A stretch of 64,000 nt of DNA, taken from assembly GCA_904419735.1 (NCBI GenBank), contig CAJFSR010000003.1, positions 11,290 to 75,289 on the forward strand, read 5' to 3'. The notes below the pieces were generated by a model that worked only from the letters and a program-made list of their open reading frames with translations, ran no database searches and was not told the origin of the DNA. The DNA comes from Candidatus Neochristensenella gallicola. Lineage in GTDB: Bacteria > Bacillota > Clostridia > Christensenellales > QALW01. The position numbers were made by a program, and so were the translations under genes. Below, piece by piece: positions 9,553-59,316 of this stretch (its first letter is position 1; each line of letters begins with the position of its first letter).

Positions 9553-11172
9553 TTAACAGAAAAACGCGCAGAATTGGGCGCTGTCCCCGCTATACATCCC
9601 GCTGTCCTTCCACAGCCGCGCAAAAACAGATCTTAGCTCTACGATCGACATTGCGGCATAAAATTCAAAATCCTCTTTAAGATATTTATTGGAATACTCC
9701 GCTACAATCTCTTTTGTTGTATCAATACAATTTCGCATATCCTTGGATAAAGACTTATATCCAGCCAGGGAGCACAAATATTCCTTAAGCTGAACTTCCA
9801 TTTTGTCTTTAAATACAATCGCATTTACATACGGCCTGCCGCTGCATTGCACAGCGCAGAAACCTTCATTCGTCAGTTTTTGCAGATTTTCTTTTTCTGC
9901 TTCAGAAAATTGTGTCAGCGGCACATCCTTTACGATTGCATTAAGAGTTGCGTTCAGATAATAATCGGGGACATCCTTTTTATATCTTCTTTTTGAAAAT
10001 ACCGCATCCTGTGTTTGCGCCTGATATCCTTTCCAGCTTGTACCTATCCATCCGTTTCCGTTATTATTGAAAAACGAGGAGGGCAAACGGCATACAGCCC
10101 CTTCTTCAAATCCGATTATGCCCCAGTCCCCTCCACCGCTCCGCTTGAAATGAGAAAAAATATTGCTTGCAAAAGAAGATGCTTCCATTAGCTGCTCCAG
10201 GTATAGGGCGAAATAAATCTGCACATCATTTACACTGTAATTGCCAAATGTTGCTCCCAGCTCGTCCGCTTTCTTCAAGGCCGGCTCGGCAAGCTGCCAG
10301 ATTGCGGCGGCATGCTGCTCGGCAAAAGTACAAATAACTTCATTAAGCCTGTTCTGGCATTCCACAGGTACGATAAAAAAATTAGTTAAATATTTATTAT
10401 TTTCAACTTTCTTAAGAAGCTCAGCTTTAACGAGCAGCTCCGCTTCTTCCTCCATATAAGGAGCGGCAATGCCCAGTTCTAGAGATAGGTCCTGCAGGGT
10501 GCTTGGATTATTATGCGCCTGACACAGAATATTTACAGGAATTTTGCGTTTGATCGCCGACCACGGAAGCCCTGACGGCTGATTGCCTGAAACGCAAAAA
10601 GATATGCTCTCAGGCTTATAGCTTCTTGTTCCAAATTCTCTTGCCATTTCCATACCTTCTTTCAATATTTTTCGCGCACGGTACAATTTTGACATAACCG
10701 TACCTGCTGGGATATTGAGAGAGCGGGCTATATCGCTGATTTTTTCACCTTGAAAATAATACGCTACAAGAATATTTCGGTAATCCGATGAGGCCATTGC
10801 CAACTCCCTGCGAAGCAGAGACAGGTTTTCACTATTTACAAGCTCTTCTTCAGGATTATAAGCGTTGTCCTCAATCTCAAAATCGCTTATATCCTTTCTC
10901 TCCTCCGCAACAGCCTGCTTATGCTTTTTATCAGCCCATACGCTATAGCGATTGCGCGCGATTCGCCATATCCATGCAGAAAGCTTTTCGGGAATTATGC
11001 CTTTATCAAGCGAAGCGATAATATTAAGCGTAATATCTGAAGCCAAATCCTCCGCTTCATAAACATTTCCCGACTTTTTTAAGCAAAAGTAAAAAATCTT
11101 TTCCGAATAATCCTGTATAACAGCATATATCAGGCTATCTTTTTCGCCAGCTTTCACCGTCACTCTCACCAC
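9553..11172 (-). CDS. sigma-70/ECF-type RNA polymerase sigma factor with about 350-aa C-terminal extension
   Basis: Region 2-like DLASDITLNII...WIWRIARNRY and region 4 HTH EKISDIARSLNIPAGTVMSKLYRARKILKE within the first about 185 aa. The remaining about 350 aa are soluble, with no TM segment. GTG start. Confidence 0.8.
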   Translation of the reverse strand: MVRVTVKAGEKDSLIYAVIQDYSEKIFYFCLKKSGNVYEAEDLASDITLNIIASLDKGIIPEKLSAWIWRIARNRYSVWADKKHKQAVAEERKDISDFEIEDNAYNPEEELVNSENLSLLRRELAMASSDYRNILVAYYFQGEKISDIARSLNIPAGTVMSKLYRARKILKEGMEMAREFGTRSYKPESISFCVSGNQPSGLPWSAIKRKIPVNILCQAHNNPSTLQDLSLELGIAAPYMEEEAELLVKAELLKKVENNKYLTNFFIVPVECQNRLNEVICTFAEQHAAAIWQLAEPALKKADELGATFGNYSVNDVQIYFALYLEQLMEASSFASNIFSHFKRSGGGDWGIIGFEEGAVCRLPSSFFNNNGNGWIGTSWKGYQAQTQDAVFSKRRYKKDVPDYYLNATLNAIVKDVPLTQFSEAEKENLQKLTNEGFCAVQCSGRPYVNAIVFKDKMEVQLKEYLCSLAGYKSLSKDMRNCIDTTKEIVAEYSNKYLKEDFEFYAAMSIVELRSVFARLWKDSGMYSGDSAQFCAFFC

Positions 11173-11595
11173 CCTTCATCTATATAGTGAATAAAAAATA
11201 AATTGTATTGCAAAAAATCATATTTTTATGTCAAAAAATTTTCAGCGTTAGCGTACACGGCAAAACACGCCCAAGTCATGTAAATCTGCCTGTTTTCTAT
11301 ATTTCCTTAAGACGTTTCAGGTCCCGCGTCCCCCGTCCGCCTTAAAAATAGTCAAGTTTAAGCGGTTCTGAGATCTCAAAGTCAAAAACGTGATTTTGCC
11401 TCCCCACAAGATATTAGACGCCATGCGCCGGGCGTATTATGGAGCAAAAGCGGCCCCATACGCAAATTCAGCACTTAAAAACTTCATCATCCGCCGCATG
11501 CTAATATTGGACAAAAAACAAAGCTCTAATTTTGATATATGCAGTACCAAAATTAGAGCTTTTATTTGGAAAATGACCCTAATTGTGATACAAAT

Positions 11596-12466: not shown

Positions 12467-12542
12467 TGGTGGACGATCAGGGGCTCGAACCCTGGACACC
12501 CTGATTAAGAGTCAGGTGCTCTACCAACTGAGCTAATCGTCC
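12467..12542 (-). tRNA. tRNA-Lys (anticodon CUU), CCA encoded
   Basis: Manual cloverleaf: acceptor GGACGAU/AUCGUCC, D arm GCUC-AGUUGGUA-GAGC, anticodon arm CCUGA-CUCUUAA-UCAGG, T arm CAGGG-UUCGAGC-CCCUG, then ACCA. Confidence 0.95.
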
Positions 12543-12545
12543 GTT

Positions 12546-12620
12546 TGGAGCGGAAGACGAGATTCGAACTCGCGACATTCGCCTTGGCAAGGCGACGCTC
12601 TACCACTGAGCCACTCCCGC
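12546..12620 (-). tRNA. tRNA-Gly (anticodon GCC), CCA encoded
   Basis: Manual cloverleaf: acceptor GCGGGAG/CUUCCGC, D arm GCUC-AGUGGUA-GAGC, anticodon arm UCGCC-UUGCCAA-GGCGA, T arm GCGAG-UUCGAAU-CUCGU, then UCCA. A TTTACA-17-TAATAT promoter lies near 12690-12660 on the minus strand. Confidence 0.95.
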
Positions 12621-16407: not shown

Positions 16408-16525
16408 CAGCGCCGCAAGAAACTGCCGCGGCGTTTGCGGCCCGAAGGGCCGCCGGCCGGGCTAACGCCCGGCCCAGGCAGGCGGTAACGCCTGCCAAAC
16501 GCCGCGGCAGTTTCTTGCGGCGCTG
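16408..16525. repeat. GC-rich nested-palindrome element, copy A (30-bp perfect outer arms, three inner hairpins)
   Basis: Arms CAGCGCCGCAAGAAACTGCCGCGGCGTTTG (16408-16437) and its exact reverse complement (16496-16525). Inner hairpins are CGGCCC-GAA-GGGCCG, GGCCGGGC-TAAC-GCCCGGCC and GGCAGGCG-GTAA-CGCCTGCC. Confidence 0.9.
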
Positions 16526-17432: not shown

Positions 17433-17685
17433 GTCCGGCCGTGCTCTGAAAGCGCTCAGCGGTCTTATATAGCTTGAAAAAGCGCAGTAATCCGCATATC
17501 TCCGGTTGACTCTGCGGCTTCAATTTATGAAAACTAGTCTGTTTTAATGGCGGACGAGGGGGCGCAGAGAAAGCGCACCCCCTATTTAGGATAACACAGA
17601 AAACGGGCAAATTTTCCGGCTGCGGCGCATTATCCCCTGCATACTAACACTAAAATATAATTATAAATAAAATGCGAGTAAAGCT

Positions 17686-47288: not shown

Positions 47289-47431
47289 GAGCCAAGGCTC
47301 AAGCGCCCAATGCAAAAACGGCGGCGTTTGCGGCCTGAAAGGCCGCCGGGCGAAGCTCAAAAGCTTCGTCCGGGCAGGCTCACAGCCTGCCAAACGCCGC
47401 CGTTTTTGCATTGGGCGCTTGAGCCTGGCTC
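47289..47431. repeat. GC-rich nested-palindrome element, copy D (35-bp perfect arms plus a 6-bp extension past a 1-nt bulge)
   Basis: GGCTCAAGCGCCCAATGCAAAAACGGCGGCGTTTG (47296-47330) is the exact reverse complement of 47391-47425. Inner hairpins are CGGCC-TGAAA-GGCCG, CCGGGCGAAGCT-CAAA-AGCTTCGTCCGG and GCAGGCT-CAC-AGCCTGC. Confidence 0.9.
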
Positions 47432-47614: not shown

Positions 47615-48910
47615 ATGATTTATAAAAAGGAATTAAAACAGAAATATGACGTAGACGTATTTATCGCAGGAGGCGGCCCGGCCGGATTTGCCGCGGCAAC
47701 AGCCTGTGCGCGCCAGGGCAGGAGCGTCTTTCTGGCCGAAAGCCACGGTTCCTTCGGCGGCTCCGGGACTGTAGGCATGGTGCCTGCGTTTATGTGCTTT
47801 GGAGACGGAATTAATTTTCTTGCAGGCGGAATAGGCCGGGAAATCAGGGACGCGCTTTATACTGACAGAAGCAACGATGCTTACGGCTATGCGATACACG
47901 CAGAAACCCTCAAGCGCCTTTATGACGACATGGCTCAAAAAGCGGGTTTTAAATTTTCCTTCTTTACTCATTTAACCGATGTAATATGCACTGACGGAAG
48001 AGTGGAATATGCTGTAATATCATCCAAAAGCGGCATGTATCTTATTCGCGCCAAAGTCTTTATAGACGCAACTGGGGACGGCGACCTCTGCGTATGGGCG
48101 GGCGCTCAATATGCGTTAGGGGATGAGAACCAAAATACTATGCCCGCTACCCTGTGCAGCCTTTGGGCAAATATAGATTATCCCCGGCGGAACGCGCGGG
48201 ATGACAGCCGGCTGGAGGAGGCCATAAATGACCATATTTTTACTCTGGAGGACAGACACCTGCCCGGCATCGCCGACGCGGACACGGCCCGCGGAGTGGG
48301 CGGCGGCAATATCGGTCACTGCTTCAACGTAAATCCCACTGATGAAGCTTCCCTGACACAGGCTATGCTTTGGGGAAGAAAATCCCTACCTGAATATGAA
48401 TACTATTACAACCATTATCTTAAAGGCTTTGAACATGCCGGCATCTGCTCAACTGCTGATATGCTGGGAGTGCGTGAATCACGGAGGATCAAGGGAGATT
48501 ATGAGCTGTGCGCGCAGGATTTCCTGAACAGGGCGGTATTTGATGACGAGATAGGACGGTACTGCTACCCGGTGGATATACATATAATGACCCCAGACAA
48601 GGAGGCCTATGAAGCTGTTCTGGCCGAATACAAGCGCTTCAGCTACGGTCCCGGCGAATCCTACGGCATTCCCTATCGCGCCTTACTGCCTGCCGGCCTC
48701 TCCAACGTGCTGGTAACAGGCAAATGCATAAGCACAGACCGCCAGATGCAGGCTTCGGTAAGAGTTATGCCCGGCTGCTACATAACCGGCCAGGCAGCCG
48801 GAATAGCCGCAGCGCTTGCATGTTCCTGCAACGGCGAAACCCGCAGCATAAATATAAAAGAACTCCAAGCCCGCCTTAAGGACATGGGCGGCTATCTCCC
48901 CAACGCTTGA
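47615..48910 (+). CDS. FAD-dependent oxidoreductase
   Basis: Rossmann dinucleotide motif DVFIAGGGPAGFAAA and a C-terminal GQAAGIAAA segment. Confidence 0.8.
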   Translation: MIYKKELKQKYDVDVFIAGGGPAGFAAATACARQGRSVFLAESHGSFGGSGTVGMVPAFMCFGDGINFLAGGIGREIRDALYTDRSNDAYGYAIHAETLKRLYDDMAQKAGFKFSFFTHLTDVICTDGRVEYAVISSKSGMYLIRAKVFIDATGDGDLCVWAGAQYALGDENQNTMPATLCSLWANIDYPRRNARDDSRLEEAINDHIFTLEDRHLPGIADADTARGVGGGNIGHCFNVNPTDEASLTQAMLWGRKSLPEYEYYYNHYLKGFEHAGICSTADMLGVRESRRIKGDYELCAQDFLNRAVFDDEIGRYCYPVDIHIMTPDKEAYEAVLAEYKRFSYGPGESYGIPYRALLPAGLSNVLVTGKCISTDRQMQASVRVMPGCYITGQAAGIAAALACSCNGETRSINIKELQARLKDMGGYLPNA

Positions 48911-48932: not shown

Positions 48933-49187
48933 TACCCTCAGAAGGCATAAAATTTGTGTCCTGCTGTGCTGCTTTGGCTCCATGTACGCCAGGTACATGT
49001 CGTTTAAGAGCACTTTACCCGGCACAAATTTTATGCCTTCTGACGCTAAGACCTAAAACGGCGAGAATTTCTTCATTTCCAAGACAGACGAAGAAAGCGT
49101 ACCGGGGAGTACGCTGATTGAGGATAACGCGGAAAATGAAGAAATTCTCACGCTTGGAGGAGTGCAGTTACTGGTAAACTGAGGGTA
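48933..49187 (+). repeat. structured 255-bp element, family F copy 1
   Basis: Termini are TACCCTCAG / CTGAGGGTA. There is an 18-bp perfect stem (48941-48958 with 49023-40) around a conserved core (48966-49013), and a second stem of 18-19 bp (49063-80 with 49131-49). Confidence 0.8.
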
Positions 49188-49282
49188 ATAAACGCACAGC
49201 TAATTAACGCGCCCGCCTTAAAGTTCAATGAGTCAGCGTATCAAGCTGTGCGTTTCATTTATTATTTATAATATATCGGAAC

Positions 49283-58272: not shown

Positions 58273-58294
58273 GCCCGCCTCAGGCGGGCTTTTT
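58273..58294 (+). terminator. intrinsic terminator of the GNAT gene
   Basis: GCCCGCC-TCA-GGCGGGC followed by TTTTT. Confidence 0.88.
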
Positions 58295-58308
58295 ATATCT
58301 GATAAACT

Positions 58309-58573
58309 CCCTAAATTAACAAGGGCATATACGGTCAGGACAGGGCTGTTTGAGTGTCATGCCGTGCTGCTTTTCGCTCTGTGTACGTCCGGTACACGTC
58401 GTTCAAACGCCTTACAGGTTACGGAAGCGGCCGCTTCGACCCCCTGCGGTCTGATTTCGGCATTTTCAAGGAAGCGGAATGAGGCGTAATGAACGCACAC
58501 CCATTCACGATGACACAGCAAATGCCGAAATCAGACCGCAGGAGGCGTGTATCCTCCCCTTGTCAATTTAGGG
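58309..58573 (+). repeat. structured 265-bp element, family F copy 2
   Basis: Termini CCCTAAATTAACAAGGG / CCCTTGTCAATTTAGGG (one mismatch), conserved core 58364-58411, and a 22-bp perfect stem (58444-65 with 58520-41). Confidence 0.8.
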
Positions 58574-58727
58574 TAAGCTAATACAATCAGAACGCGATTC
58601 TGTTTTGTATTAGCGCCCGCCCCGCATTATTACACAGACGGTAAATACTCCGGCATATTTTGGACTGTGCGCCCCGCAGCTATCCACGCTCCCAGCAAAA
58701 ATACTTGACCCCAGCGAAAGGAAATCC

Positions 58728-58838
58728 TTAAATTATATGAGGATACAATAAGCAGAAATACCAGAACCTTTTTTCCAATGACAGCTGCATATCAAAACAG
58801 AAGAATTTCCCCGGTACGGCGCATTGTATAACGTACAT
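58728..58838 (-). CDS. 36-codon ORF with strong SD (speculative small protein)
   Basis: AGGAGGA, 5 nt, ATG. Product is MYVIQCAVPGKFFCFDMQLSLEKRFWYFCLLYPHII. A 9-bp inverted repeat GCATTGTAT/ATACAATGC brackets the SD and start codon. The ORF is below the ORF-track size cutoff. Confidence 0.25.
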   Translation of the reverse strand: MYVIQCAVPGKFFCFDMQLSLEKRFWYFCLLYPHII

Positions 58839-58927
58839 AAAAGTCCTCCTATGTCATACAATGCATATAAGAAAAGCGGCTTTAAGCCGCAATTTTATCA
58901 ATTAATTGAAAAACTGCTATGTTTCGC

Positions 58928-58956
58928 TTGACAAAGAAATGTGCCAATGATATTAT
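58928..58956 (+). promoter_or_regulatory. trp operon promoter
   Basis: TTGACA (58928-33), 17-nt spacer, TATTAT (58951-56). Confidence 0.75.
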
Positions 58957-58964
58957 ATTTTTAA

Positions 58965-59316
58965 TTTAAAAGCGCAAACCGTTGAAGCGGAGATAACGGC
59001 AATAATGCCTTTACAGAGAGCCTGCGATGCTGCAAATCAGGCAAGAAACAGATTGTCAAATGGGCCGCTGAGGGTGCAGTCAAATGATATATATTATCAG
59101 AGTAATCTGCAACGTGTTGGCATACGTCAGTTGCCGGGGATATGCTGGTATCCCGCCAAGCGCACGGATAAAACCGTGAATTCAAGGTGGCACCGCGGAT
59201 ATGCTGTACTTATTATAGAGTATCTTATTCGTCCTTGACAGATAGGCTAATTCTGTCAGGGATATTTTTGTTTTAACTCCTCTGACCGAAAAAGTCCGGG
59301 GAGTTTTTATTTTCAG
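58965..59316 (+). promoter_or_regulatory. T-box riboswitch leader, tryptophan specifier (UGG)
   Basis: AGAGAG box in stem I, UGG at 59061-63 followed by a purine, T-box sequence AAGGUGGCACCGCGG (59184-98). Two terminator-like hairpins follow: 59233-59262 plus a U tract, and 59275-59312 plus UUUUUAUUUU. Confidence 0.88.

Follow-up and report, generated by a model that had tools for sequence, protein, structure and literature searches.

A family of inverted-end intergenic repeats in uncultured gut Clostridia with likeness to miniature inverted-repeat transposable elements

In a stretch of Candidatus Neochristensenella gallicola DNA of 64 kb, analysed as a whole and called the window below, positions 48933-49187 hold a multi-stem element (copy 1), which is a member of a family of ~270-bp non-coding repeats with inverted ends in the genomes of some uncultured gut Clostridia. 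Our analysis suggests, with a probability that we put at roughly 0.6, that this family is a new non-autonomous mobile DNA repeat resembling the miniature inverted-repeat transposable elements, or MITEs, and that copy 1 is a slightly truncated member of it. The element has the appearance of selfish mobile DNA and not of a functioning RNA gene. We favour this reading because the small size and lack of coding capacity, the inverted ends with TA, the dispersed multi-copy occurrence between genes, the presence/absence differences and the decay after insertion all match published MITEs. No described element in the collections searched matched the family. A preliminary description of copy 1, made from the letters of the sequence, had left it open whether it is a non-coding RNA or a repeat, and the evidence now favours a dispersed, TA-flanked mobile repeat bounded by terminal inverted repeats (TIRs).

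Copy 1 and its family

A related element, copy 2, had been pointed out in the preliminary description, and the two do align over their full length; their core is strongly conserved, and their terminal and second stems, though unlike in sequence, still pair. This kinship is not due to chance, since the two cores match by blastn with an E value of 5e-8 and ten metagenome loci carry the same family. We built a profile hidden Markov model (HMM) from eleven members with copies 1 and 2 among the alignment rows; its E values for these two, 4e-76 and 1.5e-63, are circular and no evidence of kinship, because both belong to the source alignment. The model recovered two further members in the window (copies 3 and 4), a second and a third copy in the metagenome locus L036 and a second copy in the locus L069; these two window members and those L036 and L069 copies that lie outside the training set have nhmmer E values from 3e-7 to 9e-28. 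The window hence holds four copies: the two noted earlier stand, and two older ones have to be added to them. Three copies, in both orientations, are found within 14 kb of L036.

A pattern of the core gave 41 matches in metagenome contigs, and 10 of these are true members, each with different flanks. The same pattern gave 24 matches in contigs of a one-genome-per-species collection, all of them chance-like and none with the family, but this null result says little on the distribution, as the pattern is too strict and real variants such as L036c (GTTGCTTT) escape it. In viral contigs the core pattern brought up nothing, and the matches from four scans for patterns of the core, the TIRs and the loops were all due to chance, the family HMM accepting none of them.

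Members fall into two subfamilies plus an older third group. Subfamily 1 consists of copy 1, L042, L059/L061/L069 and L066, with 82-87% identity from locus to locus, and subfamily 2 of copy 2, L036a, L036b and L043, with an identity of 87-92%; between the two subfamilies it is about 60%. Copies 3 and 4 are the older third group. The genes next to the copies are unrelated housekeeping genes, e.g. parB, pyruvate kinase (pyk), rpsJ, proS with a T-box, and ABC transporters, and no partner gene or protein recurs among the neighbours of the copies examined. The loci L061 and L069 are 98% identical over 2.1 kb up to a point 3 nt beyond the right end of the repeat and unrelated from there on, and this break reflects either recombination of one copy with another or an error of the metagenome assembly at the repeat. 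A tRNA-Ala gene and a TnpV gene come after the repeat in L059.

Within copy 1, the outer repeat, the 18-bp stem, the core, the second stem and both GTAC hairpins of the preliminary description were all found in place (Table 1). In the stem of arm 1, GAAGGCATAAAATTTGTG (48941-48958) is the perfect complement of 49023-49040, and in the stem of arm 2 positions 49063-80 pair with 49131-49 with one bulged base (18 nt vs 19 nt). The idea of a multi-stem element is borne out by folding: the minimum free energy of the copy 1 RNA is -103.5 kcal/mol vs -65.8 +/- 5.0 kcal/mol for 200 dinucleotide shuffles, none of which folds as well (z -7.6). The GGAGG(A/C)GTG block shared by copies 1 and 2 near the 3' end is present as described, but it does not stand alone as a motif and makes up the 3' strand of the arm 2 base plus the inner terminal stem.

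Table 1. Positions of the repeat copies in the window, of the parts of copy 1 and of the adjoining inverted repeat
Feature	Position	Strand	Remark
Copy 1, subfamily 1	48933..49187	+	5'-deleted family member; flanking TA on each side included
Left TIR remnant, TA + CCCTCAG, TACCCTCAG	48933..48941	+	pairs with 49179-49187
Arm 1 (P2)	48941..49040	+	conserved core inside perfect 18-bp stem
Conserved core, GTGCTGCTTTGGCTCC-hairpin-GTCGTTTAAGAGCAC	48966..49013	+	48 nt
Arm 1 tip hairpin CATGTAC-GCCAG-GTACATG	48981..48999	+	GTAC-N5-GTAC
Arm 2 (P3)	49063..49149	+	conserved internal loops and tip hairpin
Arm 2 tip hairpin AGCGTAC-CGGGGA-GTACGCT	49096..49115	+	
GGAGGAGTG block	49156..49164	+	in full-length members, 3' strand of arm 2 base and inner terminal stem
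Right TIR, CTGAGGG + TA, CTGAGGGTA	49179..49187	+	
12-bp inverted repeat AAACGCACAGCT / AGCTGTGCGTTT, then T-rich run	49190..49255	.	outside the repeat
Copy 2, subfamily 2, TIRs CCCTAAATTAACAAGGG / CCCTTGTCAATTTAGGG	58309..58573	+	
Copy 3	11245..11506 (about)	-	old diverged full-length member, structure lost; nhmmer E 8e-10
Copy 4	17433..17650 (about)	+	old diverged 5'-truncated member, structure lost; nhmmer E 3e-7

Copy 1 is incomplete, as ~20 nt (TTTACAAAAAAGACGGTCAG) that its closest relatives have directly after CCCTCAG are missing, a deletion that is bounded by two TCAG repeats and cuts the terminal stem to 9 bp; with half of its left TIR gone, copy 1 is probably an immobile relic with a deleted left end. 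Copy 2 (z -6.2 against shuffles) has a deletion of ~10 nt in arm 1 relative to L036 and L043.

The boundaries of the family were read from an alignment of members with unrelated flanks, in which the similarity runs from CCCT to AGGG. Full-length members have 265-275 bp, members overall 251-275 bp, and the TIRs 12-25 bp, CCCTCAGTTTACAA / TTGTAAACTGAGGG in subfamily 1 and CCCTAAATTGACAAGGG / CCCTTGTCAATTTAGGG in subfamily 2. The left ends of the two subfamilies differ in three places, and each of these differences recurs in mirrored form at the right end. A TA stands after the right end in 11/11 copies and before the left end in 7/10, and the left flanks are AT-rich.

Full-length members fold into a Y with a three-way junction of a terminal stem and two long arms. 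The best preserved one, L043 (275 nt, -155.6 kcal/mol, 106 pairs), has a terminal stem of 25 bp, an arm 1 of ~45 bp with the conserved core and an arm 2 of ~30 bp with conserved internal loops. Predicted folding energies across the family range from -73 to -156 kcal/mol. A GTAC-N5-6-GTAC hairpin caps each arm; as GTAC is a palindrome of 4 bp, a site for restriction-modification or for another protein, exposed at both tips, is conceivable. The core, the best-conserved block between the subfamilies, is 77% identical, the apical loops of arm 2 are 70% and the arm 1 stem is 51% identical. The arm sequences differ between the subfamilies and their pairing is retained: with the L043 structure projected onto the alignment of eleven members, 80.7% of the cells are paired vs 36-48% in slid controls (88.9% in the terminal helix 1 and 89.7% in helix 6, the arm 1 tip). 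Double-sided changes occur in 26 pairs (74 cells) and in all three helices, with 12 of those pairs in arm 2 (helix 7); this covariation is mostly one split between the two subfamilies and represents few independent events.

We considered that the two arms might be mirror images, i.e. that the element might be two long TIRs fused together. Arm 1 aligns with the reverse complement of arm 2 no better than shuffles do (z 0.1, 3.3, 2.6 and -0.7 in four copies), therefore the Y shape is not simply two fused long TIRs. The family is also non-coding, as indels between copies break every reading frame over the core and the 3' part, and only short, non-conserved open reading frames (ORFs) are left. A coding remnant or a small peptide was rejected, the frames being unconserved and the ATG after GAGGA leading to unrelated peptides in copies 1 and 2.

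Mobile DNA and its rivals

The presence and absence of the copies, and their decay, can be followed in related strains and species. Strain L003 lacks copy 2: from just past the terminator of a GNAT gene to just ahead of a T-box promoter, ~125 bp of unrelated sequence takes the place of ~58291-58920 (630 bp, which comprise copy 2 and about 350 bp more). Copy 1 is missing from the syntenic spacer of the L070 and L071 species, and neither this absence nor that of copy 2 is a precise excision: the spacer between the FAD-oxidoreductase gene and ylmH has 372 nt in the window vs 166 and 161 nt, unrelated in sequence, in these two species, whose oxidoreductase proteins are 88% and 80% identical. About 50 kb of related contigs hold no family copy. 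Copy 4, which takes up the whole spacer from an SDR gene to a hydrolase gene, is present in all strains seen. The folds of copies 3 and 4 are no better than those of shuffles (z -0.65 and -0.22), and at three loci in several strains the between-strain differences affect 3.2% of the paired and 3.5% of the unpaired positions, none of them compensatory. Selection inside the host appears to be absent, because the structure is lost in copies 3 and 4 and stems and loops differ at equal rates.

To explain these observations, we propose that a transposase encoded elsewhere would recognise the inverted ends and move the unit into intergenic TA sites. The mobiliser would most likely be a TA-targeting DDE enzyme of the IS630/Tc1-mariner type, in view of the TA flanks and as proposed for the pneumococcal RUP element. 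Only structurally intact master copies would propagate, which would keep the arms pairing between subfamilies, and a copy once inserted would drift neutrally and then decay. A copy inside a transcription unit would give a transcript with very stable 18-22 bp duplexes, which could alter mRNA processing, in the way known from other bacterial MITEs, as a side effect and not as a selected function.

Several observations weigh against the MITE-like reading. The one within-species absence, in L003, is a replacement of 630 bp by 125 bp and not a precise excision, and no clean filled/empty pair was found with the FAD-oxidoreductase, proS and SDR genes as anchors, where the spacers of relatives are unrelated and other strains hold the same copies. 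A duplication of TA is putative, and as TA is self-complementary it could merely close the inverted repeat as the last of its base pairs. Neither the window nor the loci analysed have an autonomous element or transposase with matching ends, or a second end pair enclosing an ORF. Copies at different loci are only 82-92% identical, therefore there was no recent burst. The GC content is 0.41-0.55 (0.47 for the window), so that the family is not AT-rich, and its length exceeds the figure of under 200 bp given for classical bacterial MITEs. The internal arms keep their pairing between subfamilies by double changes, for which a plain cut-and-paste MITE has no obvious need. Finally, all four informative copies with co-directional genes on both sides have the sense orientation (p about 0.06), and this hints at transcription-linked selection.

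The last two points also count in favour of a functional structured RNA family, either cis elements in 3' untranslated regions (UTRs) and leaders or small RNA genes, with a Y fold under selection and loops that bind protein or RNA. The strong folding of the copies, the double-sided changes in every helix, and the somewhat better conservation of the core and the arm 2 apical loops than of the arm 1 stem speak for such a family, as do a -10-like hexamer that is often found just 5' of the left end and a slight sense excess of interior G-U pairs (66 vs 49 antisense), which gives no clear strand signal. We nevertheless regard this explanation as unlikely. Sense and antisense strands fold about equally well in thirteen copies, and no promoter or terminator is common to the copies. 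Older copies in the same genome have no structure, polymorphisms hit stems and loops alike and are never compensatory, and both strongly folding copies in the window have lost parts of a helix. The element is absent from orthologous spacers of close relatives and from another strain, near-identical copies adjoin unrelated genes, and the covariation comes down to essentially one subfamily split. A known RNA family was excluded: the preliminary description had recognised no known non-coding RNA, and Rfam 15 agreed with it, giving no match at the gathering score for the whole window, copy 1, L061, L036a and L036b, and at E<=10 for copy 1 and these three other members only chance-level matches to miRNA or snoRNA.

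An alternative hypothesis, improbable too in our judgement, is a mobile element that depends on its structure and moves via folded single-stranded DNA or an RNA copy, with the Y junction and the GTAC hairpins as substrate of an enzyme such as an HUH/Y1 transposase, a RAYT-like protein or a tyrosine recombinase acting on folded DNA (cf. the integron attC and CTX phage attP sites), in place of a DDE transposase that binds double-stranded ends. Independent palindromic arms with pairing kept across subfamilies are what one would expect if the enzyme recognises the folded form, both arms end in a similar hairpin, and the decay of copies after insertion fits selection during propagation only. On the other hand, the family has symmetric TIRs and TA flanks, whereas IS200/IS605-type elements and REPs have no TIRs and their ends are asymmetric, and no HUH, RAYT or recombinase gene recurs near the copies; the lack of strand asymmetry in folding is neutral here rather than supportive. 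The same symmetry of TIRs and TA flanks sets the family apart from IS200/IS605-derived PATEs and from REP/REPIN sequences, which are marked by subterminal hairpins at asymmetric ends, by the lack of TIRs and of a target duplication and by a tnpA or RAYT gene that goes with them in the genome, and no Y1/HUH gene was seen among the neighbours examined. We see a small chance, slighter than for either of these hypotheses, that the family is a new kind of structure-dependent non-autonomous element in which the folded ~270-nt junction itself is the substrate of mobilisation, by an enzyme not yet linked to it; such a substrate would explain why the arms pair across subfamilies despite the neutral decay of inserted copies.

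A chance palindrome, or a local duplication without a wider family, to which the earlier count of just two copies had lent some colour, is refuted by the shuffle z values of copies 1 and 2 and by the four window copies and ten further loci from independent metagenomes.

Other origins were tried and set aside. By blastn (word size 11), both loci were compared with 50,697 phage records and copy 2 with 72,556 plasmids, and only chance matches of 20-35 nt or none came up. Retrons, bridge RNAs, omega RNAs and tracrRNA-type guides were rejected as no reverse transcriptase, recombinase, TnpB/IscB or Cas gene adjoins any copy.

Surroundings of copy 1 and other features of the window

Copy 1 lies 23 nt downstream of the stop codon of a FAD-dependent oxidoreductase gene (PF12831), and the gene on its other side is convergent and YlmH-like. 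SipL, among other genes, assigns the host to the Clostridia. The inverted repeat at 49190-49255, just outside copy 1, is by its sequence probably a terminator common to these two genes, though the consensus terminator scan omitted it because its loop is long. If this terminator is shared, copy 1 would belong to a 3' UTR, and it is probably co-transcribed in that of the oxidoreductase gene. Inside copy 1 the terminator scan gave no plus-strand terminator-like site, and no T run follows any of the three helices.

A 12/13 direct repeat brackets copy 1, with GCCCGCCTTAAGG at 48869-48881, which falls within the last codons of the oxidoreductase gene, and GCCCGCCTTAAAG at 49211-49223. We rejected it as a target duplication or recombination site as other family members do not have it. 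A shorter pair, CGCCCGCC at 58273 and 58624, brackets copy 2.

Downstream of copy 2, a T-box leader (77.2 bits, E 7e-17) was found at 58973-59239 (+) upstream of an anthranilate synthase (trpE-like) gene; the default scan missed it because its score is below the Rfam gathering score of 93. A near-consensus promoter, TTGACA-17-TATTAT with TG, is located at 58928-58956. The strain-variable segment includes a 36-aa ORF, MYVIQCAVPGKFFCFDMQLSLEKRFWYFCLLYPHII, at 58728-58838 (-), with AGGAGG upstream at good spacing. The window also has a separate GC-rich palindromic repeat family between genes, at 16409-16524 and 47302-47419 (AGCGCC...GCGGCGTTTGCGGCC...GGCCGCCGG..., and at a distance of about 80 nt an inverted partner), therefore intergenic repeats of more than one kind occur in this genome. 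Two tRNA genes, Lys-CTT and Gly-GCC, are next to each other at 12467-12620 (-).

Known repeats compared and what the family may mean

Bacterial MITEs are small and non-coding, have TIRs with a terminal 5'-TA-3' and a target duplication, lie between genes and have very stable predicted transcripts (PMC2229807; PMC10969869). The present family is unrelated in sequence to the Correia elements (CREE/NEMIS) of Neisseria, ERIC, RUP, CIR and QMITE2, and it resembles each of them in some respects.

Like the Correia elements and the ERIC/RUP-type MITEs, it is small, non-coding, intergenic and dispersed, with TIRs, a terminal TA and stable transcript duplexes. RNase III can cleave CREE, and promoters can arise at the ends of these elements (PMC2229807, PMC2649163); the outward TTGTCA of the right end of subfamily 2 likewise gives a promoter-like site in copy 2. 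The differences are the length of 265-275 bp vs about 100-160 bp, a composition that is not AT-rich, and two separate long palindromic arms in place of a single fold-back. 

As to the promoter-like sites, the right inverted repeat of subfamily 2 bears an outward TTGTCA or TCGTCA. Together with the flanking DNA these make up -35/-10-like pairs that face the downstream gene, TTGTCA-16-TACAAT in copy 2 (58560-58587 +) and TCGTCA-17-TAAAAT in L036b (about 9915-9950). Hybrid promoters of that kind have been described for insertion sequence (IS) ends and Correia elements.

The CIR1-4 repeats of Caulobacter and Brucella are also described with two long inverted repeats; these form two arms that a linker connects, and a short palindrome is exposed at a hairpin tip (PMC2229807). 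They carry GANTC methylase sites and not all of them have MITE ends, whereas the present family has the GTAC motif, a terminal stem that closes both arms and an unrelated sequence, and comes from another phylum. RUP of Streptococcus pneumoniae, which is mobilised by IS630-Spn1, is a Firmicutes MITE with TIRs and TA insertion and serves as a model for the proposed type of transposase; it has 107 bp and its TIRs match an IS630-family element, while the present family has no known matching IS. In QMITE2 of Coxiella burnetii the TIRs measure 23-29 bp, the core is conserved, and the transcript has a predicted folding energy of about -113 kcal/mol (PMC10969869), which is comparable to the range of our family. 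QMITE2 is flanked by 7-9-bp direct repeats in place of TA, and the sequence and the host are unrelated.

A 2024 review of prokaryotic MITEs mentions neither Clostridia nor Firmicutes (PMC10969869). If our reading is true, a MITE family would be added to the gut anaerobes among the uncultured Clostridia. What is unusual in it is that the internal arms covary between subfamilies, which the simplest cut-and-paste model does not explain. Near-perfect palindromes of 270 bp will be mistaken for non-coding RNA candidates in structure-based screens. The repeats can also break or mis-join metagenome assemblies, and one flank break occurs exactly at an element end. Where they are co-transcribed, the repeats may alter mRNA stability or create promoters beside housekeeping genes.

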